Assembly: GCA_964187785.1 (NCBI GenBank)
Contig: OZ076409.1
Location: forward strand, 77,998,001-78,062,000
From: Amphiscolops sp. MND2022
Taxonomy: Eukaryota
Direction of reading: 5' to 3'
DNA length: 64,000 nucleotides
The position numbers and the translations under genes are program-made. Positions 3,101-28,292 of this stretch are shown piece after piece. Position 1 is the stretch's first letter; the number at the start of each line of letters is the position of its first letter. The notes beneath the pieces are model-generated. The model did not search any database and was not told the DNA's origin. It saw nothing but the letters and a program-made list of their open reading frames with translations.

Positions 3101-3668
3101 TTGAACGCGACCTAAAGATGCTCAAATGTTTTTTGGCATGGAAATTCAACTCAAGAACGAACAGAAACATTGACATAAAAGATTTGACAGCCTACACCCT
3201 TACATACAACCAAGCTGAAATCGAAAAATACGAATTAGGACTTTGGCAGAGACACTGGACCCATCAATGTGAGACCCCGCCAGTTCCACTCAACCACAAA
3301 ATCCAAATGCAGTACAGATTTTCCCGGAAAGACGAAGTAGACACCTTCAGAATAATATCAGGCCACTGCAAATTAAACGATTTTCTCTACAAAATTTGGA
3401 AAGCACCTTCTCCAAGATGCTCCTGTGGTTTTAACGAAGAAACAGTGGAACATTTCTTACTCTTCTGCAATATGTTCGATGAGCCTAGAGAAAAATGGCA
3501 AATTCGAGGCTCCCTGTCGGAAGCTCTCCAAAACAAGAACTTTACTGACTTTATCAAAGAAACAGAACGGTTTAATTGACTTCATGAGAACTTGTGTCAT
3601 TTCATCTTGTTTGAATAACTAAGATTGTTAACTGCTCGCAAAAAGGAGCTATCAGAATTATATATATA
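186..3668 (+). mobile_element. Degenerate non-LTR retrotransposon (LINE) with ORF1 remnant, APE endonuclease, RT and C-terminal Zn finger
   Basis: Broken ORFs 196-453, 483-908 (AAYVPP, IFMGDFN), 1019-1348, 1415-1735, 1879-3579 (FRPITLLS, QEGFR, DLEKAFDSV, CADD for YADD, CSCG..ETVEHFLLFC); short (TA)n tail near 3659-3668; several frameshifts/stops. Confidence 0.9.
1879..3579 (+). pseudogene. LINE reverse transcriptase fragment
   Basis: RT motifs present but altered (GLPHRS for GxPQGS, CADD); separated from upstream ORF2 pieces by stops/frameshifts. Confidence 0.85.
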
Positions 3669-5995
3669 GTAGTAGTAAAAGACTCAATTCACTGAGGACA
3701 GGAAGCGTAAACAACAATACGTATGAATGCTGCATTTACATGTTTGAAAGATATATATTTAGAAAGAAATACGATATCAGGAACGACACACAGAACATCT
3801 ACATCTCACATGATAGGTACACATGTTATTGTAGTTAAACTTTGTTCTAGTCAGATTTTTCAAATATTCAGAAAGTGCATGTTTGAATTTTTCCAACGGC
3901 CAATTGAAGTCAATGATTTTATCTGCAAGTAACACATTGCTTATCCAAGGAGCACGAACACAAAATTTTTCCATGGATTTCCACTTTGAAGAGTAGCTGA
4001 TTTCAAAAAGATCAAGTCGTGAATTTCTGGTTAGATTGCATTTTTGCTTCAGAGGCATCGTAATATGGAAATCGACACGTTTGTTCACAATTTTCCAAAG
4101 AAGAATGACATCGGCCCGAACAAGTTGATAACAAATTGGAAGGAGATCCAATCTTTCCAAGGTACATTCATAATCCAGGCCAGGACAGATCCATCGGAGC
4201 ACTTTTTTCTGGAAATTTTCCAAGCACTGTAGGCTAAAACAACAAGGGGCCCAACAAGGTGAAGCATACAAAAGAATACTCAGAACTAAAGTTTTATACA
4301 ACATTAACTTCTTCCCAGTTGAGAGACTAAACGGTAACACACGTCTGATAAATTGAAACACTTTGATCCCTTTTTGGATTGCTTTTAGGATGTGATCTTT
4401 CCAATTTAAATCTTTTGATATCAGGACACCTAAATCCAATATTTGATCTACGGAAATGAATGGGTTTTCTCCAAGGCGTAACGTCGAAGGTTGCGTTGAA
4501 TTTGAGCAGGGGAAAAGCTTCAACTTTGTAGTATTGAACTCCATTCGGTTATCATCATATTGTAGTAGACTGTTGATATCCATTTGGGTTTCAATGTTGG
4601 GTAGCATTGCAATCAGTTTGAGATCATCTGCAAAGAGAAAATCATGTGTGTATTGAATAACAGAGGGTAGGTCGTTTATAAATAGAAGGAACAACAGGGG
4701 ACCCAGGGTACTGCCTTGTGGTACTCCCGAAGTTATGGGCAGAATGCTTGAGCAAATATCATCAAAGCGAACACATTGTGAGCGGTCTGAAAGATAAGAG
4801 GCAAGTAACATTGTGATATTTCGATCAAAACCAAAAGACGGGAGCTTTTTGATGAGAAGATCATGAGGCACAGTGTCGAAAGCTTTCGCAAAATCGAAGT
4901 AAACACAAGAAAAGGGGATGTTTTGATCCAAACAATCATACAGGGCATCGAGATAGTGAATCAGTTGGGTTACTGTATTTCGCTTAGTCATAAAACCGAA
5001 TTGTGAATTAACGATTTTAGCTCTGACGCGAGGATAAATATGATCGAAAAGTATCTTCTCTAGAATGAGTGAAACGCGTGGTAAAATGCTGATTGGCCGA
5101 TAGTTAGTAACACAAGAAATAGATCCAGACTTATGCAGAGGGGTTATGTAAGCCAATTTCCATTCGGAGGGCCAGCTACAAGATTGAATAATTGAGAGAA
5201 ACAGATATTGTACTGCAGGTGCAATAAGATAGCCAGTATGTTTAAGCACAAAACAAGGAATGCCATCGGAAGTACAAGCAGTTGAGTCGTCAGCAAGTGT
5301 TAAGAGGGATACGATAGTTTCTAATTTGATATCGAGGTCGTCCAACGAAACTTCAATGTTTTCGGGCCATACCATATCATCAAGGTTTACCATAGTAGCT
5401 GGTTTGTAGACGGAGGCAAAGTATTTATTTAGCAGTTCACATTTTGAAAAATCGTCAGCTGAAGTATTATCACCATTTTTGAGCGTATTTGGTAAGCCCC
5501 TTTTTGAATTAAGAGACCGTAATAACTTGAAACAATGATTAGAATCTTTCAAATGTAGGTTTTCAACTAAAGAGGCTTTATCTAATTCAATGGAGAAAGA
5601 TAGATTTTGTTCACAGATATTGAGAGAAGCTGCATAAGAAGCGTTCCAATTTTTATCCAATTTTCTTTGTAAAGTGTTTTTACAATTTGCTAGGTGGACA
5701 GTATGAGATGAGAAGTAATATGGATATAATTGGCGCTTTTTACGTTTTTTAGAGAGCGATTTTTCCATGACTTCATGGAAATATTGGTACTATATCTCGA
5801 CAAAAATTGAGCGGAAAAACGAAACAGTTGGAAAGAAAGTTATAAAGTGGGTTAAGATTCTCGTTGAATGTTGCCAGAATTAAAGAGGATCGACTGTATT
5901 GTTTGCCAGTTGGAAGAGACTGTAGCATTTCGAAGGAGTTTATTCGTGTTTAAACAAATACTGGAAAATGATCGGAAATTTTCTCAGAATGGACA
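3669..5995 (-). mobile_element. CR1/L2-group LINE, 5' part runs into the assembly gap
   Basis: ORF 3777-5768 with NYRPISIL, QFGF, DFAKAFDTV, GVPQGS, FADDLK, DLGV; APE end motif ISDHFPV just before the gap; short (TAC)n tail near 3669-3678. Confidence 0.9.
3777..5768 (-). CDS. LINE ORF2 reverse transcriptase portion (663 aa open)
   Basis: Canonical non-LTR RT motifs; upstream endonuclease part is separated by a stop. Confidence 0.85.
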   Translation of the reverse strand: MEKSLSKKRKKRQLYPYYFSSHTVHLANCKNTLQRKLDKNWNASYAASLNICEQNLSFSIELDKASLVENLHLKDSNHCFKLLRSLNSKRGLPNTLKNGDNTSADDFSKCELLNKYFASVYKPATMVNLDDMVWPENIEVSLDDLDIKLETIVSLLTLADDSTACTSDGIPCFVLKHTGYLIAPAVQYLFLSIIQSCSWPSEWKLAYITPLHKSGSISCVTNYRPISILPRVSLILEKILFDHIYPRVRAKIVNSQFGFMTKRNTVTQLIHYLDALYDCLDQNIPFSCVYFDFAKAFDTVPHDLLIKKLPSFGFDRNITMLLASYLSDRSQCVRFDDICSSILPITSGVPQGSTLGPLLFLLFINDLPSVIQYTHDFLFADDLKLIAMLPNIETQMDINSLLQYDDNRMEFNTTKLKLFPCSNSTQPSTLRLGENPFISVDQILDLGVLISKDLNWKDHILKAIQKGIKVFQFIRRVLPFSLSTGKKLMLYKTLVLSILLYASPCWAPCCFSLQCLENFQKKVLRWICPGLDYECTLERLDLLPICYQLVRADVILLWKIVNKRVDFHITMPLKQKCNLTRNSRLDLFEISYSSKWKSMEKFCVRAPWISNVLLADKIIDFNWPLEKFKHALSEYLKNLTRTKFNYNNMCTYHVRCRCSVCRS

Positions 5996-6195: not shown

Positions 6196-6214
6196 TGATG
6201 ACAAGCGTTATCAT

Positions 6215-6234
6215 TACAGTGGGGTAACCGGCAA
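6215..6234 (+). repeat. Left terminal inverted repeat
   Basis: TACAGTGGGGTAACCGGCAA, preceded by ATCAT. Confidence 0.92.
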
Positions 6235-6892
6235 GGCCTTCCAAAACTCGGAAAATGTTGGGCAAAAACTCGGGAATGCATGGGCGAGTTTTGTTGTTCA
6301 TAACTGAAAATCTCGGAAACGCATGGGCGAAGTCAACTAATTGTTGAACATAATCTGTCCATTCGTTTCCCACCAAGTGTGGCCTTTCAATTTGATAGAA
6401 ACTTTGAATACATATCAAAAAATGTCCGAGATATACCTAATCAACTAAAGATAAGGATTTGCCGATTATCAGAATTTTAGTAAACCCTTCCCAGGTACTT
6501 TTTTTCGAAATAAATTTGAATAATGATTATCAAGCTTCCATGCTTCTCATCATTCCACCTTAAATCGAACAACTCTCATTTAATATAATTGAATAAGCTT
6601 AAACTCATACTATATATCAATCAATAGGAAGATTAGGAGATTACAAGAAGATTAGATTGGTATCATAAGATCTTTCCGGGGGCTTGTCTTTTTGAACAAT
6701 TTAATCCTCATTACTTTTTGTTTGACTCAATTGTTTAATGTTATTGTTGTCAATTATTACAATGTCGCTCCACTACTGTTCTTTTGCCCCAAATCGAAAA
6801 CAAAATGATTCACAAGAGACTGATTCAATTAAGAAACATAATGGAAAAGATATCACAATTGTTATGGCAATGGATACAAAAAATGAATAAAT

Positions 6893-8437
6893 TTAAAAAC
6901 TAAACTGACTTCTGCAATTATTGGCTGCGGAACGACGATATTCGTCATCGCCATTTAAATTGTCCTGGAAACAATCGATAGATACTCGCACAGTTTTCAG
7001 CAGAAAATCGTTGTTAATTGAAAATTTTAGGCTTTTGATAATGTGGCAGAAAGTTTTAGGGAAGATTGGTGGGAGCATATCCCATTGTCGGCCTAGGGTA
7101 CTGTCCCATTCTGCATTTTTGTGGAACTTTTCTGAGTCAGGATCTATATGAAATTTGACTTGGTGTCCAGAACCCATTAAAAAGATATTGTTGGAAATTT
7201 CGTCAACCAAGCAAATGTCCTGATTCATCATTGTGCGTTTGGACTGGGATATCCCGACCAAACGTTTCAGCGCTGACAGGTAATGAAAAGCTCTATTCAC
7301 AGGTGAACAAGCTGCGGACAAGTCCAGAGCTTTCTGCTTCATGTAGTTTGCTTCTGTCAACACTAGCTTTACAGCTGGGTAAGTGATGGAGTAGCATCTG
7401 TCTTCTTCATCGACCAGTTTCGCCATGGCCTTCTTCATCTCCACGTCGAACCATATCTTCTCCAATTTCATCGTGAAGACCGTGCTCCTAATGTTTATCG
7501 TAACGTGGTCACCTGATAACAGAATGCGAATATTCAGTTTCATTTAGTAATAATAATTTATTAACCACTTGAGAAAGATTTATGCGACAAAGTTTCTATA
7601 AGCATGTAAATTTTTCGAGAGGACGCTCGTGGCAAAAAACTTGGTTTCAGTTTTTTTGTTTGATTTTTTTTAGTACCGTAGAAGTTAGACTAGTAATAAT
7701 CAAATTGATCATTTACCTGCTGATGCAATACCATTTTCGCAGGGTACAATGTCCAGAAGTTCGTCTTTCTCGGCAAGACTCGCAATATATGCGGCAATAT
7801 CAATTTTCTGTCTGGGAGTGGTTATAGTGGGTTCTGGTTCTGCATCTGTTTCTACTACTCTCTTTTTTTGCCGCGATGGTTGGACATCTTCGGGCTCCGA
7901 ATCAAACTCTGAAGGCTGCCTCGTGTCAGGATGAGTCCAGTTCTTCGGACGAATTTGTTCATAGTCGATGAACTGGATGTCCTTTGTGCGCCCGTCGAAG
8001 GAAACAGCCATATTTTGCTGGAATGGGTCATTCATGACAACATAACCCGAGTTCAGCAGCTTCGACTCCTCGGCATCTTTTCTAACCTCTTCCAAACTAG
8101 GAATGTCCGCTGGTGATTTCCGTGATGTCCCAGTGAAAAAGATTCTGTCCCCTAGTTGGCGCTTTCTTGGGTCGGGGATGTCAAAAACGGTTTCTGCTGG
8201 CTTCTTGGATTTCCGGCGACCGCGGACATCTTGTAATACTATACATTTTCTAACCGGCCAGCAATTTTGGGGTGTGTTGGGGGACACTTCAATTCTGTCT
8301 GATCCGAATCGCTTCACAAGTTTATCGGGCCAATTGAGGTATTTCACTCGGATTCCAAATGATCCTTCAAACCCAATGATGCGAGCATCTTCCCAAATTT
8401 TTGTTGCAGGATCCAAAACTTGAACTTGCTCTTTCAT
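6893..8437 (-). CDS. Two-exon gene with N-terminal Tudor/chromo-barrel-like domain(s); exons ~8437-7717 and 7512-6893
   Basis: Phase-1 GT-AG intron 7513-7716 joins ORFs 7709-8494 and 6893-7543 in frame; VQVLDPATKIWEDARIIG..IRVKYLNW resembles PHF20/MBT-type Royal-family barrels; start codon approximate. Confidence 0.6.
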
Positions 8438-8737
8438 ATCAAAAACACTGATGAAATCCATTTCAATTAATGAAATTAGTGCTTTATTTTTCAAGAAATT
8501 TAATTTCGTAAACGAGTATTTTCAGTATTGCATTTGCCACTAATGTTTATCAAGCAAGTTTGAGCAAATAAAATCGTTATCGGGACAAATGATTATCAAG
8601 TGAGTTTGATCGACTCAAATCGTTACATACGCATAAGATGAATTTTAAATGTCAGACGCATATTAATTAATTGTCAGACGCATTTTAAATGACAATAAAC
8701 CCCCAGACACTTTTGCACGGAACATCCAAAACGTAGC

Positions 8738-9065
8738 ACGATAAATTTATAATTTTTTGTCAAACGCTTTTCGATCAAGCAGACGCATTTCAAAATCCAC
8801 GTGAGTGTGAGCACGCTAAAACTACAATTACTCGATTTATTTCCGATATAATCAATAACATCAATAACGTAATACGATAATTTTATAATATTTTGTCAAA
8901 CGCTTTTCGATCAAGCAGACGCATTTCAAAATCCACGTGAGTGTGAACACGCTAAAACTACAATTACTCGATTTATTTCCGATATAATCAATAACATCAA
9001 TAACGTAATACGATAATTTTATAATTTTTTGTCAAACGCTTTGCGAACCAGCAGACGCATTTCAA
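8738..9065. repeat. 136-bp tandem repeat (~2.4 copies) in the divergent intergenic region
   Basis: CAAACGCTTT recurs at 8761, 8897 and 9033. Confidence 0.85.
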
Positions 9066-9170
9066 GAATGGAAACGCTAGTGTGGAAACGATAAAGTGTC
9101 AATACGCTTTTGAAAAAACAACAACTACTAGAATAACTTCCAATATAACTTTCGACGTACGACAATCAGG

Positions 9171-12100
9171 ATGACAATACACCCCGAGAAGCTTCTGCAC
9201 GATTACACTGAAACAATTGATGGAAAAAGTTTTGTGGATGCTAAAATTTTGGATGTTTTTGCTGGGCATATTATAAGAGAAAAATCTCGAAAACTGAAAA
9301 GCGCGATCGAAATAGTAATTGAAGGAACTGAATTAAAACTCGAAGATTGTGTAATAAACAAAAAAAAACTTGCTTTGTTGCAATTGGAATATTGCAAATA
9401 ATAATTGTTCGTGGTTTACAAAGTGGGTTTCCATGGACACAATTACGAAGAAGATACGTGTCCTATTTTTTCCCAAATACGCCGCAGCTAATTCCCGACT
9501 CACAACCTTTTGTCAATCCACTTCCAATGCCAACAATCCCAGTGGAGCAGTTTTCTAAACCTGAATCAGGTTTCAGTCAGAAGATGCATACAATTCTCGC
9601 AACATTAGCAGCTACAGAACAAAAGCGGATTCATACTAAGGCCCAGAAGACCTCTCTGCATCAATTTGAAGCCAAGGCTCTGGTTAAGGGTGTTTTTTCA
9701 AACTATTTATCGTACGAAAAGCTGAAGTCAGACATATTTATCTGTACTAAAACTGGTAGTTGGATAAATATGATCAACACGCTGAAAAAAACTTTCCATG
9801 TCGATGGACTGGGTCAAAAACAACTAATTCCTGGTTCTACGGCGATCAAAGAGATGTCAAAACCGATGATTTCAAAGTTTATATCCCTATTCAAACCAAA
9901 AAACACTTTCTCGGGATTCAGAATTGATTTTGTACGTGCTATCAAAGTCATGACATTCATTCTGTTCAAAGGAAGAACTGATTTGCAAGGTCTGAAAGTT
10001 GATATTTGGGGAGATGGTGTTCAAATAGGGAAAAAGGATCAAACTCGAATGGCCTTCCGTTTTCTCGAAGGAACATCTATCAGCAATCAGTCATCAGATG
10101 CACTCTTCTCTTTTGCTGTTTTCCAAGGTATGTTCTGCTATTTTGTCCTGCTGAATCTTTAAATATAATTTAGCTCTAGGTTAGCTTCGCACACTTTACA
10201 ATACGTGTTTACAGGTCACGACGGTCGTTGGTTGCTAGAGCAAAATGTCGGGTACCTGGAACTAGGTGAGCAAGATTCCTCTTGGCTTTACCAGCAGACG
10301 AAACAACTCCATGACGCCGGAGTCCTTTTAACATACAGTGGAGATCAACCATTCCTAAATCGCCTTCTCATTGGAACCTCTGTTGATCACATGGAGAGTG
10401 AAGAAAATCCATCAAAATTGCAGATGTATCTTGGGAATGACGATTCAGTTAAACCAGAAACCGTGCACGAAAAAAGTGGACATCGAGGTGATGTTCGCCT
10501 ACCATTTCGAACCACCATTCCTCATGAAAGTTTGACGTTTTTGCCAGACATCAGATGCGTTTGTCCCGACGGCACTCATGCAATAACAAGGTGTGTCGAG
10601 GGAGACATTAGAAAGTTCATGGAGTTGAAAATTCTCCAATCTGAAGATGACTCAGCTACAGTTGATTATATTAGGGAAAATTTTCAGCGCAATTTGACCG
10701 AGAGAGGTTGGAAAGAGCCTGGCTTCGAATTTGACATTGACAAACGCAACAAAAAATGTGCTCCCATTTCCCTTAGTGGCAGAGAAGCTATCACTGGCAT
10801 TGCTGATATGTACGAACTTGCTGAGGCTGGTGTTCAGCATGAACTGTTCGAAGGAGTTTTTTCCGAGAACAAGACTGTTGGAGCCTTGTCGGGTACAAAA
10901 AGTGCAAGCATGAATGTGTTGAAAAATCTTCATCCCAATTCATTCGAAAATATCGAAAGCCCATGTCAAATGAAACTTTTGGTTGCAGCTGAACTCTGGA
11001 GAAAGTCACTAAATCAGCTTACCGTGCTGATGAGGACGAGGAAGAAATTCGAAGAACAGGACTTTTCCGACTATAAATACTGGTCAGAAATCCACTATCA
11101 CATTTCGATTGTACTGTTCGATGTAAAACTAGGTTTGACACCGTACAGACTGAAACTGTGCCTGATTCCCCAGCTGTTAGAAGGAGGCTACATTGAATCA
11201 CCCTTTAACCACCTGTGCGAAGGCCCCGAAAAATCAAATCATCATGTCCATAGAGACTTTCAGCAAAAGACCATGCGAGGGGGAGGGACAGTTCGACACG
11301 CCGACCCCATGTTTCTCGAAATGTTTTTCACTTTCTGTTCTGGTCTCCGGTTTTCGACTTTGGAAGGCACAATCGACGAACAGCTCTCACTTTGCCATCA
11401 ACGGCTTTTCAATGAACCCATAGAGGTGAACCTATCTTTTTTAGACTCCCTGGGACCAACTGAGAAAGCCATCATTCCCGTTGGAAAAGTTCGAGAGAAG
11501 TCCCGCCTTTTCTTGGGTAAGGATTTTTTTTGTACCTATATGCCCACGTCCAACTTTTTTGGTTATGAAACCTAAGTGGTATAAATTTAGCGAAATTTAG
11601 TTGGATAAACCAACAATATAGTGTGAATTTTGCTTTTCTTGCGACTCCGAAATAAATGTAGTGGATCGTTGAACAAATGTTTGACTTGAGTTTTGCTGAA
11701 TATTTGTATTGCACCGCAACACGTTGACAAATATTAGTCCTAAGTTACTCGGATGAAATACTTCCTCAAAACAGCAACAGATTCCAAGTACCACTGGCGT
11801 AGTGGTTACTTCGTGCGACGTTCCGTCGTTCCGCCGCTCGTTCGCTCTTGGTATACAGGTTCGCTTCTCTGCGCCGCTGTTGGTGCAGCCTTCGGTAACC
11901 AGTGGCTGGTATTGTGTCTGGTATTGTGTGTGGTAGCCATTGGCTGGTATTACTTGCCATAGATGTCGATTGCCGGTGACGACCGCGCATTCAACAACTG
12001 TGGCAATTAGTGAGTAGATTGAGATTGGAATTCTCTCTGGCGGAGAGAGAAATCCAATCTCAATCTACTTATTTTTATGTTTTCAACTTATTATTTGCAA

Positions 12101-13138
12101 TTAGTTCTTCGCTTAACAGTGAGTTTTGAATGATGCAATTACATACCTGTTCAGAACGATCGTAGCAAAGAAAATAGAATACAGTAGTGATATTATTAAA
12201 AGCAACAAAAGACAAATTTTAGAATCAAATATCTATCAAAAAGCATTTGACTGAAGGACTTGATATGTTTTGATTGAGAAATTATATTAAAGTCTCAATG
12301 AAACCACGCTGTAAAAATAGGCGTTTTCGAAAATACTAAGTTTTTAATAATCTCACTACTGTACATGCAAAACCGTCTTAGAATTATACGGCAATAAGCA
12401 CGTTCGGCAATGGAAGGACCACCTTAGAAACCTGTTGTTACATATTCGAAGTTCGGTATATAACCAATTGTTTTCACAGAACTAAACAATATTCCGTTTG
12501 CTCCAGGATCGAGATTCTTTCTGCACGGGAAATTCAATAAAGAGCAACGAATTCAACATGAAAACCAAGATGGAAAAACTCTTGGACCCGCTGAGTGTCT
12601 CAAAAAAGTTATCAAAAAAGCGGGAGGGAAAGTTCTAGAACGAGCAGCATTGAATACTCTCCTCTCCAGACACTCCAAGTTGCCACACATTTACGTGGTT
12701 CTCCAAAATGACACAGATCTTATTAGTGCAACAACGTCGTGTGATTCTTTGCCACAAGTGACAGAAGTTATGGCCAAAGGAAAATGCAAAAAAAGGAAAC
12801 TAAATGAACCAAGTCGAACCAGTTACGTTTTACGACACTTGGCCAGTCGTGGACTTACGTTTCTATCCGTTGACTATATTTTGAAAAGTATCGAAACTTC
12901 AACAATTTTGGATGTGGAGTCTTTTGCGTTCAAACCAGGGCCAGACATCCCATCAACTTCTGTTCGTGATCATCGCAAAATTTTCCTTCTTCAGAGGAAT
13001 CCCGAACTACAAAACACAACTTCAGCTATAACATCGGTACTTCGTAAACGACGAGAAATGCTGAAGAAGCGCGAACAAGAAAAAATGAATGACGCTCAGA
13101 AAGAACACGATGAATCATCCTCAGACTCATCAGACTGA
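9171..13138 (+). CDS. RAG1/Transib-like DDE transposase with C-terminal BRCT; exons 9171-10127 (frameshift in A9 at 9360-9368), 10215-11516, 12480-13138
   Basis: Two phase-1 GT-AG introns (10128-10214, 11517-12479) keep frame; motifs WGDG (D 10013), YSGDQPFL (D 10343), CPDGTH, LTPY, CEGPEKSNH (E 11228) are collinear with RAG1 SCDG, GYDEK, IDALH, TNY, SEGNESGNK; last exon FFLHG..LKKVIKKAGGKV..IYVV..VDYILKSIE is BRCT-like. Confidence 0.75.
12013..12069. repeat. Near-perfect hairpin (26-bp stem, 5-nt loop) in transposase intron 2
   Basis: AGTAGATTGAGATTGGA-ATTCTCTCT / AGAGAGAAA-TCCAATCTCAATCTACT, one mismatch. Confidence 0.9.
12180..12363. mobile_element. Tc1/mariner-type MITE (TA-flanked)
   Basis: TA-CAGTAGTGATATTATT ... 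AATAATCTCACTACTG-TA; relative at 21657-21897. Confidence 0.75.
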
Positions 13139-13697
13139 GAATCATTTGATAATCATAATTGATAAATCGTGAAAACTTTGATTCGAACAATAATAAATTA
13201 TTTTTACCTGTTTTTATTGTCAAAATTTAATTGAATCATTCGAATTGTTTTAAACAAATTCAAAATAGAAACGTACCAAAAAGTAGCAGCGCAAAATACT
13301 AAGTAAAAACCGAAAAGAAAGAATAAAACCAAATCTTTCAAAGACCAAGAACTGGAATTCAAAATTCTAAAGTATTACTACAGTAAACTGCGAAATTGCA
13401 TCAAGTGCTGAAATACTTCGCTGAAAACAAGTTTCGAGATTTAATAATAATATATATCAATACAATGAAATAAAATAATAAAGGTTAAGAATATGTAAAA
13501 CAAAAAATTTTATCTCGAAAATGGTTTTCAACGAACTAATCAATCAAGAGACCAAAAAGTGTTTCGACCGAGTTTTTTGTCAACAATTTGAAATAGGTGA
13601 GTTAATGATATGTTCCTGTTTGGGAAATTGAGAGACATGTACCGGTTGATAGTTTGCACAAATTTTCGTCGATTGCTCTTGGATCGGCTGCCTTTTT

Positions 13698-16600
13698 TTA
13701 ATTGAAGCTGAGGACATGTAGTGCTTTGGCCAGAAGCTCCCATTTCATTAGCCTACAGTTCCCAATGGCACTCTCTAGAATAACTTTCGTCATTAACGAT
13801 AAGAAATGTGGGAAACATTTCTCAAGAGGTTCATCATTGTCCCGTTCCCTCTGGTAAACAGTCAAAGTCGTGTCTAAAAACATATATGCACAAGCATTAG
13901 TAAAACTGCCTCGAACCCATAGAAGAAGTAAAACCCGAATTTTTTTGAGAAATTAACTTAATCCGATTTTAATTTTAAAAATGAAGATTTTTTCGATTTT
14001 TTTGCTTTTTACCTTTTATCTCTTCTAACAAACAACTGAGAAACAATTATATGAAAACTGAATTTCAAAATTACCTAGATCACAGATGGTGAGAAAATTG
14101 AATCCCACGGCCACGCTGTCCGCACAGGTTCTGACCATATGTATCATGCCTGCTGGCATGATCATTGACTCGCCGCCTGTTATCGTCACTTTAAACACTT
14201 GACTTTGGAGGTGGGTGTCACTTGGTAGGAAAACATTTTGTTTTGTTGCCTCAATGCACCAATTCTCGAGAATTTCTTGGTTTCGAACTGTTCCAGGAAT
14301 CATGAAAAACTCTTTTTTACCGTGAAGAAGATGGTAAAAGACGCTGGTATTCGTGTAGTCAACATGCCAAGGTGTAATGGAACCTTTTTGACTGAGAAGA
14401 ATATAGCAATTTTGCTCCAGCTCAAAATTGAATAAATGAGACACTGAAAGTTCTTTAACTGCCGTTGGTACATCGAAATGCAAGTTCTTTGTGAGACTGG
14501 AGCTAAGATCAAGGACATTCATTGGGCCGCTCATAGCTCCAAACTCAATGGCATTTACAAAATCTTTTCCTGAGAGTGTCAAACACAGGAGTTTTTGCAG
14601 CTGAAATAGACATGTGTTGTATATGAAAAAAGAATACACTTCGAAGATCTACAATTTTGGTTTTAAAATATAAAAACCCTAATATTTTTTAAATGTTCGG
14701 TTTTCATTGGTGAAGTTAAAAAGACGAAGCCAAAAACGAACACTGACAGGTTTGTACATTCGGACAGATAATTGTACATCTTCTGCGTGTAGACAGTCTT
14801 CGAAGATGTTTCTTCGCGCTCCAAAGTTGATGTTGGGCAATTTCATACCATCCATATGTCCTCGAACAATACAGGCTCTTTTCCGCTGCAGCTCCTCCTC
14901 TATTTCGCTGCTGGTAACATTGGTGCAGCAAACTCGCATCTCGGACCCGGAAGATTCTCTGATTACATCCAGCAGCTCATGATGCTCTGCTTCATCCACA
15001 AATGCAACCAGAGAAACTTCTTCATCTTCTGCTTGAACCTGTTCGTAGCTGTTGGAATCTGAAACGAAAATTGTCAATATCATAATAAAGTTTTTTAAAT
15101 GATTGGTAGATGTTTTTCGAATACTTTTGATGAGTATCAGTGGATTCGTTTGGCAAGTAGTAAAATTGGTATGTAGAAATTTTGATATAGGTAAAACAAT
15201 AGGATTTTATTGTACCTTGGGGATTGTGTGTGGCTACTTCTTCACTTTCGTCTTCCTCACGGTTCTCTTCCTGGAGGGATTCTTCATTGCTGTCAGAATC
15301 TGAAACAAACATCGTCAAAATCAATTTAACGTTATTGAGATGATTGGTTGTTTGTCGAATATTTTCGATACGTAATATTGATATAGGTAAACAAGTCGAA
15401 GTCGTGTCTAAAAACACATATGCACAAGTATTAGTAAAACTGCCTTGAACACATGGATGGAACAAAATCCGATTTTTTTAAAAATTAACTCAATCCGATT
15501 TTAATTTTAAAAGTAAAGATTTTTTGATTTTTTTTGCTTTTTACCTTTCATCTCTTTTAACAAATAACTGAGAAACAATATTTTATGAAAACTGAATTTT
15601 ATTGTACCTTGGCGAACGTGTGTGGCTACTTCTTCTTCACTTTCGTCTTCCTCACAGGTCTCTTCCTGAAGGGCTTCATTGCTGTCGGAATCTGAAACAA
15701 AAATCGTCAAAATTATTATAAAATTATTGAGATTTGTGGATGTTTTTCGAATATTCTCGATAAGTATCAGTGGAATCGTTTGACAAGTAGGCAAATTGGT
15801 GTAGAAAAATTGATATAAGTAAAACGATAGGATTTTATTGTACCTTGGCGAACGTGTGTGGCTACTTCTTCTTCACTTTCGTCTTCCTCACAGGTCTCTT
15901 CCTGGAGGGCTTCTTCATCGTTGTCAGAATCTGAAACAAAAATCGTCAAAATCATAATAAAGTTAGAGAAGATTGGATGTTTTTCGGATATTTTCGATAA
16001 GTATCAGTGGAATCGTTTGACAAGTAGTCAAATTGGTGTAGAAAAAATGATATAGGTAAAACAATAGGATTTTATTGTACCTTGGCGAACGTGTGTGGCT
16101 ACTTCTTTTTCACTTTCGTCTTCCTCACAGATCTCTTCCTGGAGGGCTTCTTCATCGTTGTCAGAATCTGAAACAAAAGTCGTCAAAATCATAATAAAGT
16201 TAGAGAAGATTGGATGTTTTTCGGATATTTTCGATAAGTATCAGTGGAATCGTTTGACAAGTAGTCAAATTGGTGTAGAAAAAATGATATAGGTAAAACA
16301 ATAGGATTTTATTGTGCCTTGGCGAACGTGTGTGGCTACTTTTTCACTTTCATCTTCTTGACGGTTCTCTTCTTGGAGGGCTTCATTGCTGTCGGAATCT
16401 GAAACAAAAATCGTCAAAATCATAATAAAGTTAGAGAAGATTGGATGTTTTTCGGATATTTTCGATAAGTATCAGTGGAATCGTTTGACAAGTAGTCAAA
16501 TTGGTGTAGAAAAATTGATATAGGTAAAACAATAGGATTTTATTGTACCTTGGCGAACGTGTGTGGCTACTTTTTCACTTTCATCTTCTTGACGGTTCTC

Positions 16601-19150
16601 TTCTTGGAGAGCTTCATTGCTGTCGGAATCTGAAACAAAAATCGTCAAAATCATTATAATGTTAGAGAAGATTGGATGTTTTTCGGATATTTTCGATAAG
16701 TATCAGTGGAATCGTTTGACAAGTAGTTCACAAATTGGTGTAGAAAAATTGATATAGGAAAAACAATAGGATTTTATTATACCTTGGCGAACGTGTGTGG
16801 CTACTTTTTCACTTGCATCTTCTTGACGGTTCTCTTCTTGGAGGGCTTCTCCATTGCTGTCAGAATCTGAAACAAAAATCGTCAAAATCATTATAAAGTT
16901 ATTGAGAAGATTGGATGTTTTTCGGATATTTTCGATAAGTATCAGTGGAATCGTTTGACAAGTAGTTCACAAATTGGTGTAGAAAAATTGATATAGGAAA
17001 AACAATAGGATTTTATTGTACCTTGGCGAACGTGTGTGGCTACTTTTTCACTTTCATCTTCTTGACGGTTCTCTTCTTGGAGAGCTTCATTGCTGTCGGA
17101 ATCTGAAACAAAAATCGTCAAAATCATTATAATGTTAGAGAAGATTGGATGTTTTTCGGATATTTTCGATAAGTATCAGTGGAATCGTTTGACAAGTAGT
17201 TCACAAATTGGTGTAGAAAAATTGATATAGGAAAAACAATAGGATTTTATTATACCTTGGCGAACGTGTGTGGCTACTTTTTCACTTGCATCTTCTTGAC
17301 GGTTCTCTTCTTGGAGGGCTTCTCCATTGCTGTCGGAATCTGAAACAAAAATCGTCAAAATCATTATAAAGTTATTGAGAAGATTTGTGGATGTTTTTCG
17401 AATATTTTCGATAAGTATCAGTGAAATCGTTTGGCAAGTAGTCAAACTGGTATGTCGAAAAATTGATATAAGTAAAACGATAGGATTTTATTGTACCTTG
17501 GCGAACGTGTGTGGCTACTTCTTCTTCACTTTCGTCTTCTTGACGGTTCTCTTCTTGGGGAAAGTGTGTGACTACTTCTTCTTCACTTTCGTCTTCCTCA
17601 TAGGTCTCCTCCTGGAGGGCTTCATTGCTGTCGGAATCTGAAACAAAAATCGTCAAAATCATCATAAAGTTATTGAGAAGATTTGTGGATGTTTTTCGAA
17701 TATTTTCGATAAGTATCAGTGGAATCGTTTGGCAAGTAGTCAAACTGGTATGTCGAAAAATTGATATGAGTAAAACGATAGGATTTTATTGTACCTTGGC
17801 GAACGTGTGTGGCTACTTCTTCTTCACTTTCGTCTTCTTGACGGTTCTCTTCTTGGGGAAAGTGTGTGACTACTTCTTCTTCACTTTCGTCTTCCTCATA
17901 GGTCTCCTCCTGGAGGGCTTCATTGCTGTCGGAATCTGAAACAAAAATCGTCAAAATCATTAAAAAGTTATTGAGAAGATTTGTGGATGTTTTTCGAATA
18001 TTTTCGATAAGTATCAGTGGAATCGTTTGGCAAGTAGTCAAACTGGTATGTCGAAAAATTGATATGAGTAAAACGATAGGATTTTATTGTACCTTGGCGA
18101 ACGTGTGTGGCTACTTCTTCTTCACTTTCGTCTTCTTGACGGTTCTCTTCTTGGGGAAAGTGTGTGACTACTTCTTCTTCACTTTCGTCTTCCTCATAGG
18201 TCTCCTCCTGGAGGGCTTCATTGCTGTCGGAATCTGAAACAAAAATCGTCAAAATCATCATAAAGTTATTGAGAAGATTTGTGGATGTTTTTCGAATATT
18301 TTCGATAAGTATCAGTGGAATCGTTTGGCAAGTAGTCAAACTGGTATGTCGAAAAATTGATATAAGTAAAACGATAGGATTTTATTGTACCTTGGCGAAC
18401 GTGTGTGGCTACTTCTTCTTCACTTTCGTCTTCCTCACAGGTCTCTTCCTGGAGGGCTTCTTCATCGCTGTCAGAATCTGGTTCGATGTGAACTCGACGG
18501 TACCGACGTGACGTCCTTCTCTGTTCTCTTCTTCTTCTCGAATCCATCCTCGCTTGCCATCGTGGGTGTTCGATCTTCTTCTTTGGGGTCCCTTTGATTT
18601 TAATCAGGTCTTTGATTCGATGGGAATAACCTTTCCCCTCCCGCCGTCTTTTTTCCGACCAGCTGTACTCTCCTGGCACATTGCCTTTGGGCTTTTTTTT
18701 AAGAACAGCGGATTCCCCTTTAAGATAAAACGATTTGTATTTTTGCTTCAGGCAATCGTAAGCAGAACTTTCCTTGCACAATTCCTCGATGTTTTCTGGT
18801 GTTGGTTCCAACAAATTTCCTGGGTACCATTCCTCCCTTTGCAACTCAAACACTTTCAGGGTGCAAGTTCTTCCGAGGGAGTGTTGAGCGGTCCTGTGAT
18901 AGCTAAAGAACGGTCCTCCGTCTTTCTCGCCGCATCCACAAAAGCGACAAATAAAATTTGCCCGACTGTAAATTTTTTGTGCAATGCAGGTGAACTCCAG
19001 CTGGTGTTCTTCAACAGGTCTCTTCCTTGGTGCCCAGTCTTTGTACATGTGCCTCTGGCACGCAACTTTTTCGCTGAATTTTCTCCGGCATTCTGAAACA
19101 CATATTCCGATTAGTATTGGTGAAAAACATGTTTGAAAAAAATTCGACAT
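13698..19150 (-). CDS. Multi-exon JmjC histone demethylase-like gene (KDM2/KDM7 type) with N-terminal Cys/His region and acidic repeat exons
   Basis: Exons 19150-~18391, 12 repeat exons, 15058-14748, 14600-14075, 13873-13698 with consistent phases; YILLSQKGSITPWHVDYTNTSVFYHLLHGKKEFFMIP..MPAGMIHMVRT..DSVAVGFNFL keeps HxD..H and the 2-OG Lys; a possible frameshift may extend the C-terminus to 13540. Confidence 0.8.
15059..18480 (-). repeat. Tandem array of intron+exon units (mostly ~231-241 bp, three of 298 bp), each exon coding DSDSNEALQEE(T/N)xxEDESEEEVATHVRQ-like acidic peptides
   Basis: Each unit has TTTCAG|ATTC acceptor and CCAAG|GTA donor (one GC donor near 16316); example exon 15691-15608 is 84 nt, phase 1-1. 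Confidence 0.88.
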
Positions 19151-19707
19151 TTTAAATTCTATTTCAGATATCCGAACAGATCATCAAAATGATAATGCCA
19201 TTTAAGACTTGGAAACGCATGGGCAATTTGAAACGCAGAAATACATGGCTTTTTCATTGCTTTTCATCACTCGGAAACGGATGGGCGAACGTTCAATTCA
19301 TTTTATGCCAATTAGCTTACGTTATTTCATACTTCGGTTTTTATCCCCTATTTTGAAACGATAATTGAAGGTTCGCACGTCATCAGGTAATTATCACCAC
19401 AGTTGAGTTGAAAAGCGTCCTTAAATGAGCTCATCTTCATGCAAATCTAAATAGCACATCCGCAAAGCTATTACCAACGGTATGTACTACTTTTTTCAAT
19501 AATTAAATAATTCATTATCAGAAATGAATAATTATCATATATGTACTATTTAATACGAAGATCACCATTTTTCTTTAATTATAATATACCACAGTTGATT
19601 GACGAAGCGTCTTTGAATTAGTTCGAATTTGGATCGCTCAAGGAAAGGATTGAGCACTCACCATTCAATCCAAACAGTAGCTAGAAAACAGTCTCTTTTA
19701 CATAACG

Positions 19708-21075
19708 ATGAACCCTCCTCAACATGAGAAATCTCTCTCTTACACTGTCTTGGGGACTAGCCCGGCTGTGACAAATTCTGTTGCTCCAAACGAAACATTT
19801 GAAAGATTTTCGACTCCATTTAAACCGAATGAAAGCAACTTTGCATACTACATGAGTACTCCCTTGGATCAATCTAGTTCGACACAACAGTTGTATGGAT
19901 CACCCAGTGTGTCATCTAAAAGCTGGCCAAGTTTCACCCAAGTTGAACAAAGGATATTTTCACAAATCTCTAATATAGAAGGTGTGAATTATGAAGATAG
20001 CCCTTCGGACGTCTCGATAATGGTACAAGCTCAACTTGCTGCAAATCAAATGACACCTCTGTTAATCAACACTGCAAATCAACTGAACCACACTCCGAAT
20101 GACAGTACGACGAATCAACTGAGCCACACTCCAAGTGACAGTACGACGAATCAACTGAGCCACACACCGAGTGACAGTACGACGAATCAACGGAGCCACA
20201 CCCCAAGTGACAGTACGAGCCACACTCCGAGTGACATCATGGCAAGCCAACTGAGCCGTTCTTCAAGTGATATCGCGGCAAGTCAGCTGAGCCAAACTCC
20301 GAGTGATATCATGGCAAGTCAGCTGAGCCGTTCTTGCAACGACACCTTGGCAAACATGGAAAGATGCCAACAGGAGATAGCGAACAAGCGGAAACTTAAC
20401 CATTATGATGAGGAAAACCATGGCCCAAAAAGTAAACGATGTGTTCCCAAAAACTATGAGAAAAATTTGCGAGAAATTACCCCAGTGCACCTAACATTAT
20501 GCACAACTGTTGAAGCGCGACTCTTGTCAGACCTTTATGACATAATGAAGCAATTCAAATTCGCAAAATCTCTAACCAGCATTGACAAAACCAATTTGTT
20601 TGGGGACCTCATTGCTTATTTGCTGGAATTTTCTATTCCAAAGTGTAGAGATCGCAAAATTTTGAGCATTACAACTCATGCCGTTTTACAAATGGTCCCT
20701 CAAATTCAGCACAATAGAAGTTCTAACTCAAGTGACTTGTTAGTCTTGCAAATTGAAGATGAAGCTGGGTACTTGGACAGCTTCAGAATTCCTCACATTG
20801 TTGGAGAAGCAATGTTAATATATTTTGAAGCTGTACGACCGTACTTCATAAAACCTGAAGGTATCGACCAGAAAAAAAGGTTCATGCAGTCACCCAGTCA
20901 AGGGATACCACCATATTACGTCATGACGGAGCCATTCTTTGTCAACAGCTGGGGAAAAACACAATTCAAAGTGCGGAACATAAGAAATCGGATTGAACAG
21001 GTAACTAATCAAATACTGTTTGATAAGAATTACTTGACTCACTTTGCAATACCCCTTACTTCCAAGATGACTTGA
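19708..21075 (+). CDS. Ser/Thr-rich N-terminus with 12-aa repeats plus truncated tyrosine-recombinase-like domain
   Basis: NQLSHTPSDSTT repeats (~20078-20345); LIAYLL..KCRDRKILSIT, AMLIYFEAVRP and PFFVNSWGK resemble the N-terminal half of a YR catalytic domain; no HxxR/H/Y half. Confidence 0.5.
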   Translation: MNPPQHEKSLSYTVLGTSPAVTNSVAPNETFERFSTPFKPNESNFAYYMSTPLDQSSSTQQLYGSPSVSSKSWPSFTQVEQRIFSQISNIEGVNYEDSPSDVSIMVQAQLAANQMTPLLINTANQLNHTPNDSTTNQLSHTPSDSTTNQLSHTPSDSTTNQRSHTPSDSTSHTPSDIMASQLSRSSSDIAASQLSQTPSDIMASQLSRSCNDTLANMERCQQEIANKRKLNHYDEENHGPKSKRCVPKNYEKNLREITPVHLTLCTTVEARLLSDLYDIMKQFKFAKSLTSIDKTNLFGDLIAYLLEFSIPKCRDRKILSITTHAVLQMVPQIQHNRSSNSSDLLVLQIEDEAGYLDSFRIPHIVGEAMLIYFEAVRPYFIKPEGIDQKKRFMQSPSQGIPPYYVMTEPFFVNSWGKTQFKVRNIRNRIEQVTNQILFDKNYLTHFAIPLTSKMT

Positions 21076-21569
21076 AAGATAGATGCGAAAACCAATTCTG
21101 ACCAGGCGTCTGCGATGTTGTCTATCCTACAATGGGTCGAGGAATAATCGCGACCAAACCATTTAACAAGGATGACGTTATTTTTGACTACCACGGACAT
21201 GTAGAAGAAAACACGAACAACGTCGACTACTACTGCAGTCTGGACCCAGAGAACCGCAAGCCAGAATACTGCATCGAGGTTAAAACAAGGCCGGGAAGAA
21301 TTATTGATGCAACCTCGGAAATATGCCCCATCCACAACGATGGCAGAAGGTGCCTTGCTCGATTGTGCAATTACTCAAGTACCTTTGATGGTGGAAAGAC
21401 CAACCCAGCTTGTAACATGAAACTGGTCGAATTGAAATGTACATACTTGAAAAATAATCCGCGTTACGTGCTACTTATTGCAAAGCGGAAAATTGAACCC
21501 CTGGAGCAGCTGATGTTTGATTACATGGACCCCGAAGCCAATAGAATTTTCGGCGGTAATGCCGAGTAA
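21063..21569 (+). pseudogene. SET-domain methyltransferase (PR-Set7/SETD8-like), probably disrupted
   Basis: GRGIIATKPFNKDDVIFDYHG, IDAT, ARLCNYS, CNMK, IEPLEQLMFDY; in-frame TGA at 21099-21101 in Q-F-*-P-G-V upstream of ATG 21132. Confidence 0.8.
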
Positions 21570-21656
21570 AACCATTGATAAACTCGAACTTTGTTTTTAA
21601 CTTATCAGTTTTTATATAATTTTTGTTGGAATATTAGTCATTGTCATCTAGTCAAA

Positions 21657-21897
21657 TACAGTGGTGATATTTTTAAAAGCAACAAAGCCGCTTCAAAGTC
21701 TGCGGCAGGTGAAAAAAAAACTTCAAAGTCATCCCAAAACATGTATTTTCGAAAAAATCTTCAAACAAACATATTTGTAAACTAGATAAAAATCTAGAAT
21801 ACGTTTATTTTTATAAGTTTTCATAAACCACTGCCGTTTTAGAGATATTCGATTTTGAGATTTGCCTTTTGATGCTCTCAATAATATCACTACTGTA
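21657..21897. mobile_element. Tc1/mariner-type MITE, same family as 12180-12363
   Basis: TA-CAGTGGTGATATT ... AATATCACTACTG-TA; shared AAAAGCAACAAA. Confidence 0.75.
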
Positions 21898-22400
21898 TAT
21901 TATCTTCGGGTTTTGTTTTCTTTGTCAATTTTGAATTCAAAATATGCCAATGGATATTCCAAAAAGCAGATATCGATTAACACTCTCAAGGAATCATATA
22001 AAAGAACTAACTGGGGCAGACGGTCGGATCGTTGAGGAGGCTGATTTGATCCCTATCAGTCAAAATGTGCTCCTGGAGAGTGACTTGTTCATCATCGGTC
22101 TCAACTTCCTCGTTTCCTGCAGCAACGTAGTCAAACGTGAAACATTCGGATTTAGTTTTCCTATTATTCATGTGTTCAAATAGTGGTTGATGAACTGCGG
22201 GCATTAGTCAAAACATAGACACATGTAAGATTTCAAAAAGTTCATGTTAAAAACTAACTCTGACAGACGGTTGGCTCATCTCTGTCAGTCGAAACGCCGC
22301 GGTGTTCTTGAAGAACTGCTTCGGTACTGGCTTCTCTATCATGATGAAGGCTTGGCCTAAATTTGGGCTGAAAAAAACAACAAATTTGCCAAATTTACAT

Positions 22401-22449
22401 TAAAGTGGGGTAACCGACAAGGCCTTCCAAAACTCGGGAATCCATGGGC
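22401..22449 (+). repeat. Internal degenerate copy of the transposon left end
   Basis: TAAAGTGGGGTAACCGACAAGGCCTTCCAAAACTCGG matches 6215-6251 with two substitutions, one in the heptamer. Confidence 0.9.
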
Positions 22450-22567
22450 ACGTTTTGATATCCGTAACCGAATTTCTGGCAACCAAATGAGCAAAACTTT
22501 TGAGATTAGAATAACAGTGTATTTCTATATAAGCATTATATTTAATTTTTTTTGACTAAGAAATATC

Positions 22568-22926
22568 GGTGAATTCCCAAATAACATAAGAGCAAATAAC
22601 ATAAAAACAAAATTAGTTTCAAATAACATTAAAATGAAATGGGTTTCACTAAACATAAAAATAAAATTGTTAATGAGAAAATATCAGTGGTCAAAAGCAT
22701 ACACAATTCAAAAGATTCACTGAAAAAAGTGTGGAAATTACAGATAAAATTTTCTGAGTTCGATCGTTTTACCGGGTATTCGGTTTTATTTTTATGTTCT
22801 TTGACACTAATTTTGTTTTTATGTTATTTGCATTCATTTGTATGTTTAGTGAAACTCATTTCAATTTTGTGTTTTGAAACTAATTTTATTTTTGTTGTTT
22901 GTTCTTATGTTATTTAGGAAATCACC
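22568..22926. mobile_element. Foldback MITE with long imperfect TIRs
   Basis: GGTGAATTCCCAAATAACATAAGA ... TCTTATGTTATTTAGGAAATCACC; inner GTTTCACTAAACATA / TATGTTTAGTGAAAC; TSD not clear. Confidence 0.65.
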
Positions 22927-24581
22927 AACGTTTATCAAGAAAAAATATTGAAAGCAATTATTAAAACCAAAGTATTAAAAAGCCAACCCTGAAAGTTAAT
23001 AAATCAACTGATTAACTCTAACCTGTTTCAAATGGTCCGGTAAGTCGTCTAGTTCAATGTCCAGCTTCCGGATCCGTAAAAGTAACGTTTTTAACATGGC
23101 AATGACAATTGAAAACAAATGACTAACTTTTACACGCACAGTATCAATATGACCTCATCGGAATATGCGACGAAAGAATTTCGTCCAATCAGAAGCGAGT
23201 ATTCGGTTTCGTTCATCAAGATTACATGTAGTTTGATCAACAGAAAAACAAATAAACTTTTGCTCCCGTATTACAACAATCTTACTGATTTACTTGTGCA
23301 CTTAAATCACTAAAATGGAAGTGAAATTACTTTGAACATTTAGTAACATTCCACTTCTTGGAGCGTTGACTTTAACAACTGATAAGAACGTTCACACTTT
23401 GAAAAAATGGTGAATATCAGAACAATCATTTGATCAATTCTCAATAAATAAATCAATGACGTTTCACAGGATACCAACTCAATTAATAAATATGAAAAAA
23501 TCAATTGTTTTGTTATGATTGAAAAAACCTAAACTCATTTTATATATCAACTATACTGTTCTTTTGCCCAAAACAAAGAATCCTGATTTTTGATGATTAG
23601 ATTAATTGTCAATAAATAAATCAATGACGATTCACAGGATACCAATTAAATTAATAAATATCAAACAACCATATATATCAATCAAGGTGAATAGTTGAAT
23701 AAAGTTGTTTCTGTAGTAAGTGTACAACTATCAAACAATTTTTTGTTATGATTGAAAAAACTTAAACTCGTATTATATATCAACTATACTGTTCTTTTGC
23801 CCCAAAACAAAAACGATTCACAGAATACTGATTTAATAAGTTCCAAAAAAATGAAATACATCAAAATTACATACTAACACATCATAATATACCTACACAT
23901 CATAATACATCAAAATATTTGTAATTATCATAATTGCCCGATCATAATTGCCATTATATACAAAAGAAAAGAATAGTTAAGTATTAAACAGTATTAAAAT
24001 AAAGTAAACTAAATTTTATCACGATAATAATCTTGCAGTGATTGGCCGGAACGAAAAAATTATTAGGGTTATATTCCTGCAGATATCGGCTTCGGAACGA
24101 AGATTTTCGTCATTGCCAATTTTATTTGTCCCGCCTAAAATACTGGGAAAATAATAGTTGAGCTGATATTTCTTAGTCAAAAAAAATTAAGAATTTAATT
24201 TGATAACTAAATTAATTTTAACTGAATTAATTTGATAAACCAAAAACTGAACACTGAAAATCTGCATGTGTAGATAAATAATGAGACACTTCCATGTCAA
24301 AGCAGTGTATTGAATTGGCCGAAGCGAGTGGCAGATCTATCTAAATCTTGAAATTCTTTGAGCAAGCGATGGAATTACTTGCCCAATTTACTCTCATCAA
24401 CGAGTATGCATGGGCAATTAAAGCCATCGCTCCTGCAAAGAAACTCAATACGTAGCTTGTGCTTCCTCGGAAATCAATAGGCAACAGTTTTGGCTGCGAA
24501 ACGAATGGGCATTTTTGGCCCATACATTCATTCATGTCCATCATTTTCCGAGCCGCACAACGAGTAAAATCTGCATTTTCG

Positions 24582-24601
24582 TTGCCGGTTACCCCACTGT
24601 A
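24582..24601 (-). repeat. Right terminal inverted repeat
   Basis: TTGCCGGTTACCCCACTGTA is the exact reverse complement of 6215-6234, followed by ATCAT. Confidence 0.92.
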
Positions 24602-24603
24602 AT

Positions 24604-25245
24604 CATGTATTGGAAGACGGCATCTCAACTTTACCCCTTGGTCACTACATGATCAGAGATGTGCATGTTGAGCAAGACATTGTGGATGAACCAGAATGGG
24701 GATATGAAGAGGAAGAGATACCATCAAGTCCCACATGGGATGAACTGAACGGCAATGATCCGCAAGTCACAATCTCCCAAATATTCCCAGATGAGGCTCC
24801 GATGACGGCAAATGCCCCTCTGTCATCACCATTGCGTGTGCGAGTAAGTGAGGATGAACCAATCTCATTAACTCAACTGATGGAAGCATGGTCGCCTCCC
24901 GATCCGGGCATGCACCAAAGAGAGTACAGTGATTCCGAGCTGGAAGACCAGTTCAGTAACATGGACGAATCAGTTGAGGAGCGAAGCCCTCCGAGAAATC
25001 CCTTTATTGACGATGAGGCAGAGGAAGCATCAGATACAGGTGAAACTGCAGACGATGATGAAGAGTCAGACCCTAAGGACTGCGTTATAGTCGAGACACT
25101 AACAGAAGACGAGGCGAACGCCATTGAAGACTTGGAATACCTGATTGATTTCGACAATTGGTTCAGCGACGATGAATTTGTGAACCGCATCAAAAGAGTG
25201 AAAAGGAGACGGATGGAGATTGTGAGCGACAGCGAGAGCGAATAA
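24604..25245 (+). pseudogene. 3' part of a highly acidic ORF interrupted by the transposon
   Basis: Removing the element and one TSD gives the open frame DDKRYH-VLEDGISTLPLGHY..; D/E-rich, RNPFIDDEAEE, basic KRVKRRR near the end. Confidence 0.6.
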
Positions 25246-25489
25246 GACTTCATGTTATTTCATATGCTACTAGCTAGTCTGATGTGTGCAAAGCTTATTG
25301 TTTTCTTTGTATTGTTCTCAAGTACCTGTTGAGTGAACTTTCAAGTAGTTATACGCGCTTCAGTAAATTCAGAAATTCAGTCTTGTTTTGCTCTCATTTT
25401 ATTGGCCGACGCGTTGTCTAATAGCATAGAAGATTCACCAAAAGATGTAGAATATATTTCTCCAAATGGAAAACGAATGGACAGATGGT

Positions 25490-27965: not shown

Positions 27966-28292
27966 TAGAATGGACGAAAGATGCATAATATATCAAAATC
28001 TTTGGCTCATATAATGATTGTGTATGCTCATATGGTTGACTGTAGCAATAAATTGAAATAAAGTGAAATGTACGTACCAGTGTGCAGTGCTCTCTCTTCC
28101 GTGGTTCTTCTTCTTTTGGTTCTTTTTTGTAACCACCTCCCAAAAGCCTTAAAATACCTTAAACCTGATGCGGGGTAAAAACCGTGGAATCGGAAACACC
28201 GCAAGGATGACCTTTCACACATCCACAGTCCTTACCCAGACCGTTCTCACACTTAATCTAATTCTTACCAGAAAAAAAGTGAGAAGGTTGCT

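Follow-up and report, generated by a model that had tools for sequence, protein, structure and literature searches.

A large CATTAC-ended DNA transposon with a predicted RAG1/Transib fold and unequal, repeat-bearing ends in an Amphiscolops genome

We analysed a 64,000-nucleotide window of the Amphiscolops sp. MND2022 genome (contig OZ076409.1, positions 77,998,001 to 78,062,000; coordinates below count from the first letter of the window) that carries a large mobile element. Our reading, to which we give a probability of about 0.82, is that this is an 18-19 kb DNA transposon with CATTAC...GTAATG ends, 23-bp terminal inverted repeats (TIRs) and 2-bp target-site duplications (TSDs), with a transposase predicted to fold like RAG1/Transib and a likely cut-and-paste mode of movement; the motifs inside its ends are likely repeated protein-binding sites of the En/Spm type, not the nonamer of a recombination signal sequence (RSS). 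The element is likely an undescribed lineage of the CMCT clade, near RAG1/Transib, with conserved unequal ends. A first-pass annotation of the window had proposed RSS-like ends; that specific claim fails, and the ends do not look like a signal system of the 12/23 type.

The boundaries were read from a 20-mer, TACAGTGGGGTAACCGGCAA, that lies at 6215-6234 (+) and 24582-24601 (-). Allowing up to 3 mismatches, this core occurs 3 times in the window against 0.42 expected, a count reached in 0 of 100 shuffles, and an internal copy of the TIR core with 2 mismatches lies at 22403-22417 (+). The genome (1.07 Gb) holds 162 exact matches to the 20-mer and 0 to a reversed control. From 50 loci fetched out of these matches we read 51 distinct ends; CAT precedes the 20-mer in 48 of them, with C at position -3 in 49, and conservation across the ends of the window element's own family stops at position -4. 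Since CAT stands before 48 of the 51 ends and conservation ends just beyond it, the element begins 3 bases outside TACAGTG, the heptamer that the first-pass annotation had taken as the terminus, with a non-canonical terminal T.

The TSD follows from paired ends and from empty sites. Outside CAT...ATG, a variable dinucleotide is directly repeated in 17 of 18 own-family pairs, the single pair without it being an aged copy of 353 bp; with sister families included, 53 of 61 pairs have the 2-bp TSD. The host repeat around the window element is present in at least 40 copies at 92-99% identity (window 6196-6211 and 24605-25400) and contains an acidic open frame, to 25245. All 19 empty paralogous sites examined for the window insertion read GCG(T/A)T-AT-GTATTGG and lack CAT, showing that the target had a single AT and no CAT. 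The modal copy of the own family is 18,948 bp; apart from a 553-bp deletion, the window copy is 99.8% identical to the copy at G000:C1:6284908-6303855. Its right tip is ATC where the family has ATG, a difference due to mutation or to assembly error.

A genome search with the transposase returned 21 copies at 99-100% identity, and the own-family element has recently multiplied. The same search gave several groups at 39-45% identity, and a search with a distant homolog added more. In all we distinguished nine families of 17-40 kb (own, AB, C, D, E, F, G, H and I), with transposase cores 30-42% identical to the window protein (H unscored); all nine have CATTAC..GTAATG termini. Matches to the TIR patterns number 613 for C/E/F, 1661 for D/H/I and 164 for one end of G. 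Since C/E/F and D/H/I are related, the families represent about four independent lineages. In the sister families, 36 of 43 pairs have the 2-bp TSD (batches of 7/10, 11/14, 9/9 and 9/10; in the 9/9 batch three G copies have common flanks, and one spurious partner with 8 mismatches was excluded). Among the pairs lacking it are one right-right pair, a copy whose end is duplicated and two copies of family C that lie in TCAA satellite.

Several observations concern individual sister families. Two family-C copies (G000:C12:44297028-44316895 and G000:C13:2002485-2022352) are 99.97% identical, each with TCAA satellite on one side, and the sequence to the left of one matches that to the right of the other, pointing to exchange between the two or to an assembly error. 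A short segment with 82% protein identity over 50 residues is common to the own family and family C (L070:7284-7565 and L053:3748-4056) while their transposases are about 40% identical; exchange between families is a possible source. Copies of families H and I (for example L250-L251 and L178-L180) reach 30-40 kb, with intact TSDs and many dispersed internal repeats in both orientations. Family G ends (L227, L229, L239-L242, L245) have imperfect TIRs, with 4-6 differences between ends in the first 22 bases, and keep 2-bp TSDs.

The transposase, whose introns were predicted from GT-AG boundaries and homology only, combines a DDE core with a C-terminal BRCT domain. D315, D395 and E690 are conserved, with 295 residues between D395 and E690; past D395 no CxxC is conserved, nor does an HxxxH precede E690, the conserved histidines being H468, H684 and H694. 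An AlphaFold model of the family-D transposase has RAG1 and HzTransib as its best structural matches, at 10-13% structural identity, and a RAG1/Transib fold is predicted on this basis; the structural matches include no other solved member of the fold. The N-terminal ~112 residues (L140:134-470) form a predicted domain with pLDDT above 90 and no match among the structures listed, and this domain is a candidate for binding the subterminal repeats. A run of A near the 5' end of the gene (9360-9368 in the window) is 1-3 bases short of the in-frame length in 10 of 10 young copies and in frame in older ones (20 loci, one unreadable); homopolymer miscalling is the most likely cause.

Several points weigh against our interpretation of the element. 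The 2-bp TSD is missing in 8 of 61 pairs. The predicted fold comes from the family-D protein, whose core is 42% identical to the window protein, and not from the window protein itself; no Pfam match to RAG1, Transib or EnSpm was obtained for the core in 25 homologs, and a PDB profile search gave none. We know of no structure of an EnSpm, Chapaev or Plavaka protein in the PDB, which biases any verdict of 'nearest to RAG1'. The binder of the subterminal repeats is a matter of sequence-based candidates, the transposase N terminus and the zinc-finger protein of the element. Finally, no intact master copy was seen among the ten young copies read at the A-run, all of which are short there.

Within the CMCT clade as defined by Kojima (2025), the element agrees in its 5'-CA..TG-3' termini (9/9 families), in a TSD within the 2-5 bp range, here 2 bp in most paired copies and at the empty sites, and in a RAG1-like DDE transposase, here a conserved D-D-E with a predicted fold only. 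It departs in lacking C(2)C and H(3-4)H in the stretch from the second D to the E. The element thus probably works like, and descends from, CMCT transposons, with one stated hallmark failing.

Could it instead be a very divergent true Transib within the Transib/RAG1 clade, its TSD length and ends altered and its cargo gained? We think this unlikely, although part of the evidence fits. The top structural matches of the modelled protein are RAG1 and HzTransib, profile comparison with the EnSpm proteins of the same genome gave no match (HH probability 0.3%), and the motifs DxxHxxxR and ExxExxN are closer to Transib/RAG1 than to EnSpm. Transib TSDs can also be 3 bp or TA, and their TSDs and ends are labile, according to the accessible portion of bioRxiv 10.64898/2026.08.26.747230. 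However, 10-13% structural identity compares with an average of 26% between RAG1L and Transib (PMC9435367), there is no RAG1 Pfam match, and neither C(2)C nor H(3-4)H is present, including the CxxC conserved in Transibs (PMC1131882, accessible portion). Transibs are described in that portion as single-gene elements, 3-4 kb long, that have CAC-type ends and make 5-bp TSDs, whereas the elements here span 17-40 kb, carry four conserved genes, lack a zinc motif, and have neither a 5-bp TSD nor an RSS-like heptamer starting with CAC.

The likeness to EnSpm/CACTA elements lies in the CA..TG ends (CATTA is one base off CACTA), the short TSD, the large size and the asymmetric, multi-copy subterminal repeats in both orientations, here in 6/6 families; in CACTA elements such repeats are asymmetric and bound by TnpA (PMC2613891, accessible portion). 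The elements differ in that no Transposase_21 (Tnp2) match and no TnpA homolog were detected here. Canonical EnSpm transposases of the same genome (L266-L277), some of them identical copies, keep CxxC and HxxxH. PlavakaB elements, as far as the accessible part of PMC12730594 describes them, have similar CATCA..TGATG ends, a 2-3-bp TSD and a cargo of epigenetic enzymes (TET/JBP); unlike the present elements, with their SET and JmjC cargo, they are fungal and keep C(2)C and H(3-4)H, and no Plavaka Pfam match was found among 25 homologs. A full-text literature search, which took in the accessible portion of a DDE survey (bioRxiv 10.1101/2021.09.26.461848), returned no CATTAC-ended, BRCT-fused, RAG1-like element with a 2-bp TSD; Repbase lay outside its scope and could hold one under EnSpm or Transib.

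Inside the TIRs, the ends carry copies of a 17-nt unit, approximately CTCGGRAAnnnATGGGC. The first-pass annotation had noted a shared block 12 bp inside the core on the left (from 6247) and 29 bp inside on the right (ending at 24552), and this holds (p=0.002 against 500 shuffles); both offsets are kept among own-family copies, which are near-identical (25/25 left and 26/26 right ends). Its third, GAATG-type block is likewise in the sequence, though the second and third blocks are not distinct signals but copies of the one repeat. With the best k-mer chosen per family, a family-specific 11-mer is repeated within the subterminal 300 bp in 6/6 families, with 6-29 copies spread over both strands, against an interior expectation of at most 1.3. 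The proposed asymmetry also extends to divergent families: a short end with its first motif core at +36 to +41 and a long end with it at +51 to +63 are seen in 7/7 families (G unscored; motif regexes were picked by the author per family, and registers are uncertain by 1-3 bp), with long-minus-short differences of 10, 17 and 22-25 bp. On the long end, families C, D, E and F carry the inner motif in inverted orientation, the window family in direct orientation. A long-end palindrome of 20-26 bp is found in C, D, E, F and I (5/8 families, p<=0.015) and is not significant in the window family (p=0.27), AB or G. The short end adjoins the accessory gene in 7/7 families that have this gene; end polarity tracks gene order, not transposase direction. 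From the offsets and the position of this gene we conclude that the ends are polar and their polarity inherited; the long distance is not fixed and site orientation differs.

It is quite unlikely, in our view, that these unequal ends enforce left-right pairing as in the 12/23 rule, the first inner site acting like a nonamer at a short or long helical distance and only short-long pairs being cut. The predicted RAG1-like fold, the consistent short and long offsets, the palindrome in the long spacer and the link of polarity to gene order would all suit such a rule, and the single same-end pair inspected had no TSD. Asymmetric bipartite TIRs are known in Subgroup I Transibs and RAGL (PMC9435367). 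RAGL/ProtoRAG elements, however, have two single conserved blocks at each end with fixed unequal spacers; here the inner block occurs in several copies and either orientation, its direction on the long end changes between families, and the long offset spans a range of 12 bp. The palindrome is not significant in the window family itself, the offsets depend on author-chosen regexes in about four independent lineages, and descent alone predicts left-right pairs. The RAG/ProtoRAG-like direction of the first-pass annotation stands as regards the predicted fold and the unequal ends, not as regards an RSS-type inner block.

A broader proposal is decidedly unlikely, taken as a whole: that the families are a deep-branching, so far unnamed sister group of RAG1/Transib, 17-40 kb giants still multiplying in an animal genome. 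Their transposase would have lost its zinc site, gained a fused BRCT domain and switched to a 2-bp stagger; their cargo would be a constant set of histone writer, eraser and a gene of unknown function; and left-right pairing, enforced by a short end and a long end with a palindrome, would be an independent route to a 12/23-like rule.

That the ends begin TACAGTG with a terminal T and 5-bp TSDs, as in ProtoRAG, has virtually no chance of being right: ATCAT flanks both TACAGTG ends in the window copy alone (1 of 18 pairs), a false 5-bp repeat created by its last base being C instead of the family G, and the end alignment and empty sites refute it. The first-pass annotation had itself said that a lack of 5-bp TSDs in other copies would count against it, and they are lacking there, although the duplications are variable 2-bp ones and not TA. 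Scored against the RSS consensus, the 7-mer at the true terminus differs from the heptamer at 4-5 positions in 16/16 ends, and family ends gave no nonamer match better than 2 mismatches and none at a common position; TACAGTG occupies bases 4-10 in own, D, I and AB ends, and the corresponding bases of C, E, F and G read TACGACG, TACGAGG or TACGATA. Compared with RAG1/ProtoRAG (RAGL), the element further differs in its 2-bp rather than 5-bp TSD, its CATTAC rather than CAC end, the lack of C(2)C/H(3-4)H, its BRCT tail, an identity of 11-13% and the absence of a detected RAG2-like open reading frame (ORF). Tc1/mariner was also rejected, as the TSD dinucleotide is variable, not TA, and the second D and the E are 295 residues apart, not DD34E/D.

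For the transposon as we interpret it, a transposase dimer would bind both TIRs and cut at the CAT ends, probably by a nick and hairpin as RAG and Transib do, and insertion would proceed with a 2-nt stagger. The subterminal arrays may be bound by the N-terminal region of the transposase or by the element's zinc-finger protein, helping to join the ends, and the short end, its first site near +38, and the long end, with that site at about +55-62 and often an intervening palindrome, would give the element its polarity. A likely role of BRCT is to bring in partners for repair or chromatin, and SET and JmjC likely shield the element from silencing.

The cargo is conserved (Table 1). Among full-length elements, 8/8 have a SET homolog and 7/8 a JmjC homolog, with Pfam support in sister families; in the window copy the SET gene has lost the 553 bp near 21046. 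The JmjC gene likely has its 5' part, coding for zinc fingers, in the Cys/His-rich ORF. The accessory gene has no Pfam or Atlas match; its N-terminal part is, as we judge by eye, presumably Tudor-like, and it lies head-to-head with a transposase on 2/12 metagenome contigs of different sequence. No kelch or PHD (RAG2-like) match was found among 53 ORFs from six families, in which one conserved gene is unidentified. In oomycetes, some elements of the Harbinger and MuDR types carry SET genes (PMC12730594, accessible portion).

Table 1 Features of the transposon in the window.
Feature	Position	Strand	Basis or remark
Whole transposon copy, 18,393 bp	6212..24604	+	boundary and copy comparison
Left TSD copy, 2 bp, AT	6210..6211		paired copies and empty sites
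Right TSD copy, 2 bp, AT	24605..24606		paired copies and empty sites
Left TIR, 23 bp, begins CATTACAGTG	6212..6234	+	read from copy ends
Right TIR, 23 bp	24582..24604	-	outermost base unlike family, G>C on + strand
Subterminal unit L1 (+36 from terminus)	6247..6263	+	second block of first-pass annotation
Subterminal unit L2 (+58)	6269..6285	+	holds third block of first-pass annotation
Subterminal unit L3 (+101)	6312..6328	+	
Subterminal unit R1 (+53 from right terminus)	24536..24552	-	
Subterminal unit R2 (+71), degenerate	24518..24534	-	
Three inverted degenerate units (~+109, +139, +206): 24496-24512, 24466-24482, 24399-24415	24399..24512	+	two with de novo 11-mer, third aligned by eye
Conserved accessory gene, two ORFs, function unknown	6893..8521	-	homologs in 7/8 full-length elements
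Transposase gene, DDE core and C-terminal BRCT	9171..13138	+	predicted exons 9171-10127, 10215-11516, 12480-13138
Transposase motifs	WGDG 10007, SGDQP 10337, PDGTH 10565, CEGPEKSNH 11216	+	
JmjC exon, HxD...H residues present	14025..14648	-	Pfam JmjC E=1.1e-9
Internal tandem array, 231-298-bp units	15041..18515		
Cys/His-rich ORF	18266..19180	-	no Pfam match here; C2H2 matches in sister families AB, D, F
SET-domain gene	19681..21569	+	Pfam SET E=8e-9

Elsewhere in the window lie BEL/Pao retrotransposon ORFs (40438-46821; DUF1759, Peptidase_A17, DUF5641), which indicate an animal host, two reverse-transcriptase ORFs on opposite strands (1684-3579 and 3777-5789), likely long interspersed nuclear elements, an ORF with a ribosomal protein S5 domain (28293-28862, -), possibly a retrocopy, and a tandem array with an 83-bp unit and higher-order structure (25438-28020).

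Zinc binding and 5-bp duplications are common to the solved RAG1 and Transib. What the zinc domain contributes to target bending and TSD length would become visible in a living relative that shares the predicted fold, lacks zinc ligands and has a 2-bp stagger. Nine families with unequal ends in one genome are natural substrates for asking whether end asymmetry alone yields a pairing rule, a question that bears on the origin of the 12/23 rule. With its conserved kit of SET, JmjC and BRCT, the element lends itself to testing the idea of transposons in charge of their own chromatin, and the size of 17-40 kb suggests a large cargo capacity.
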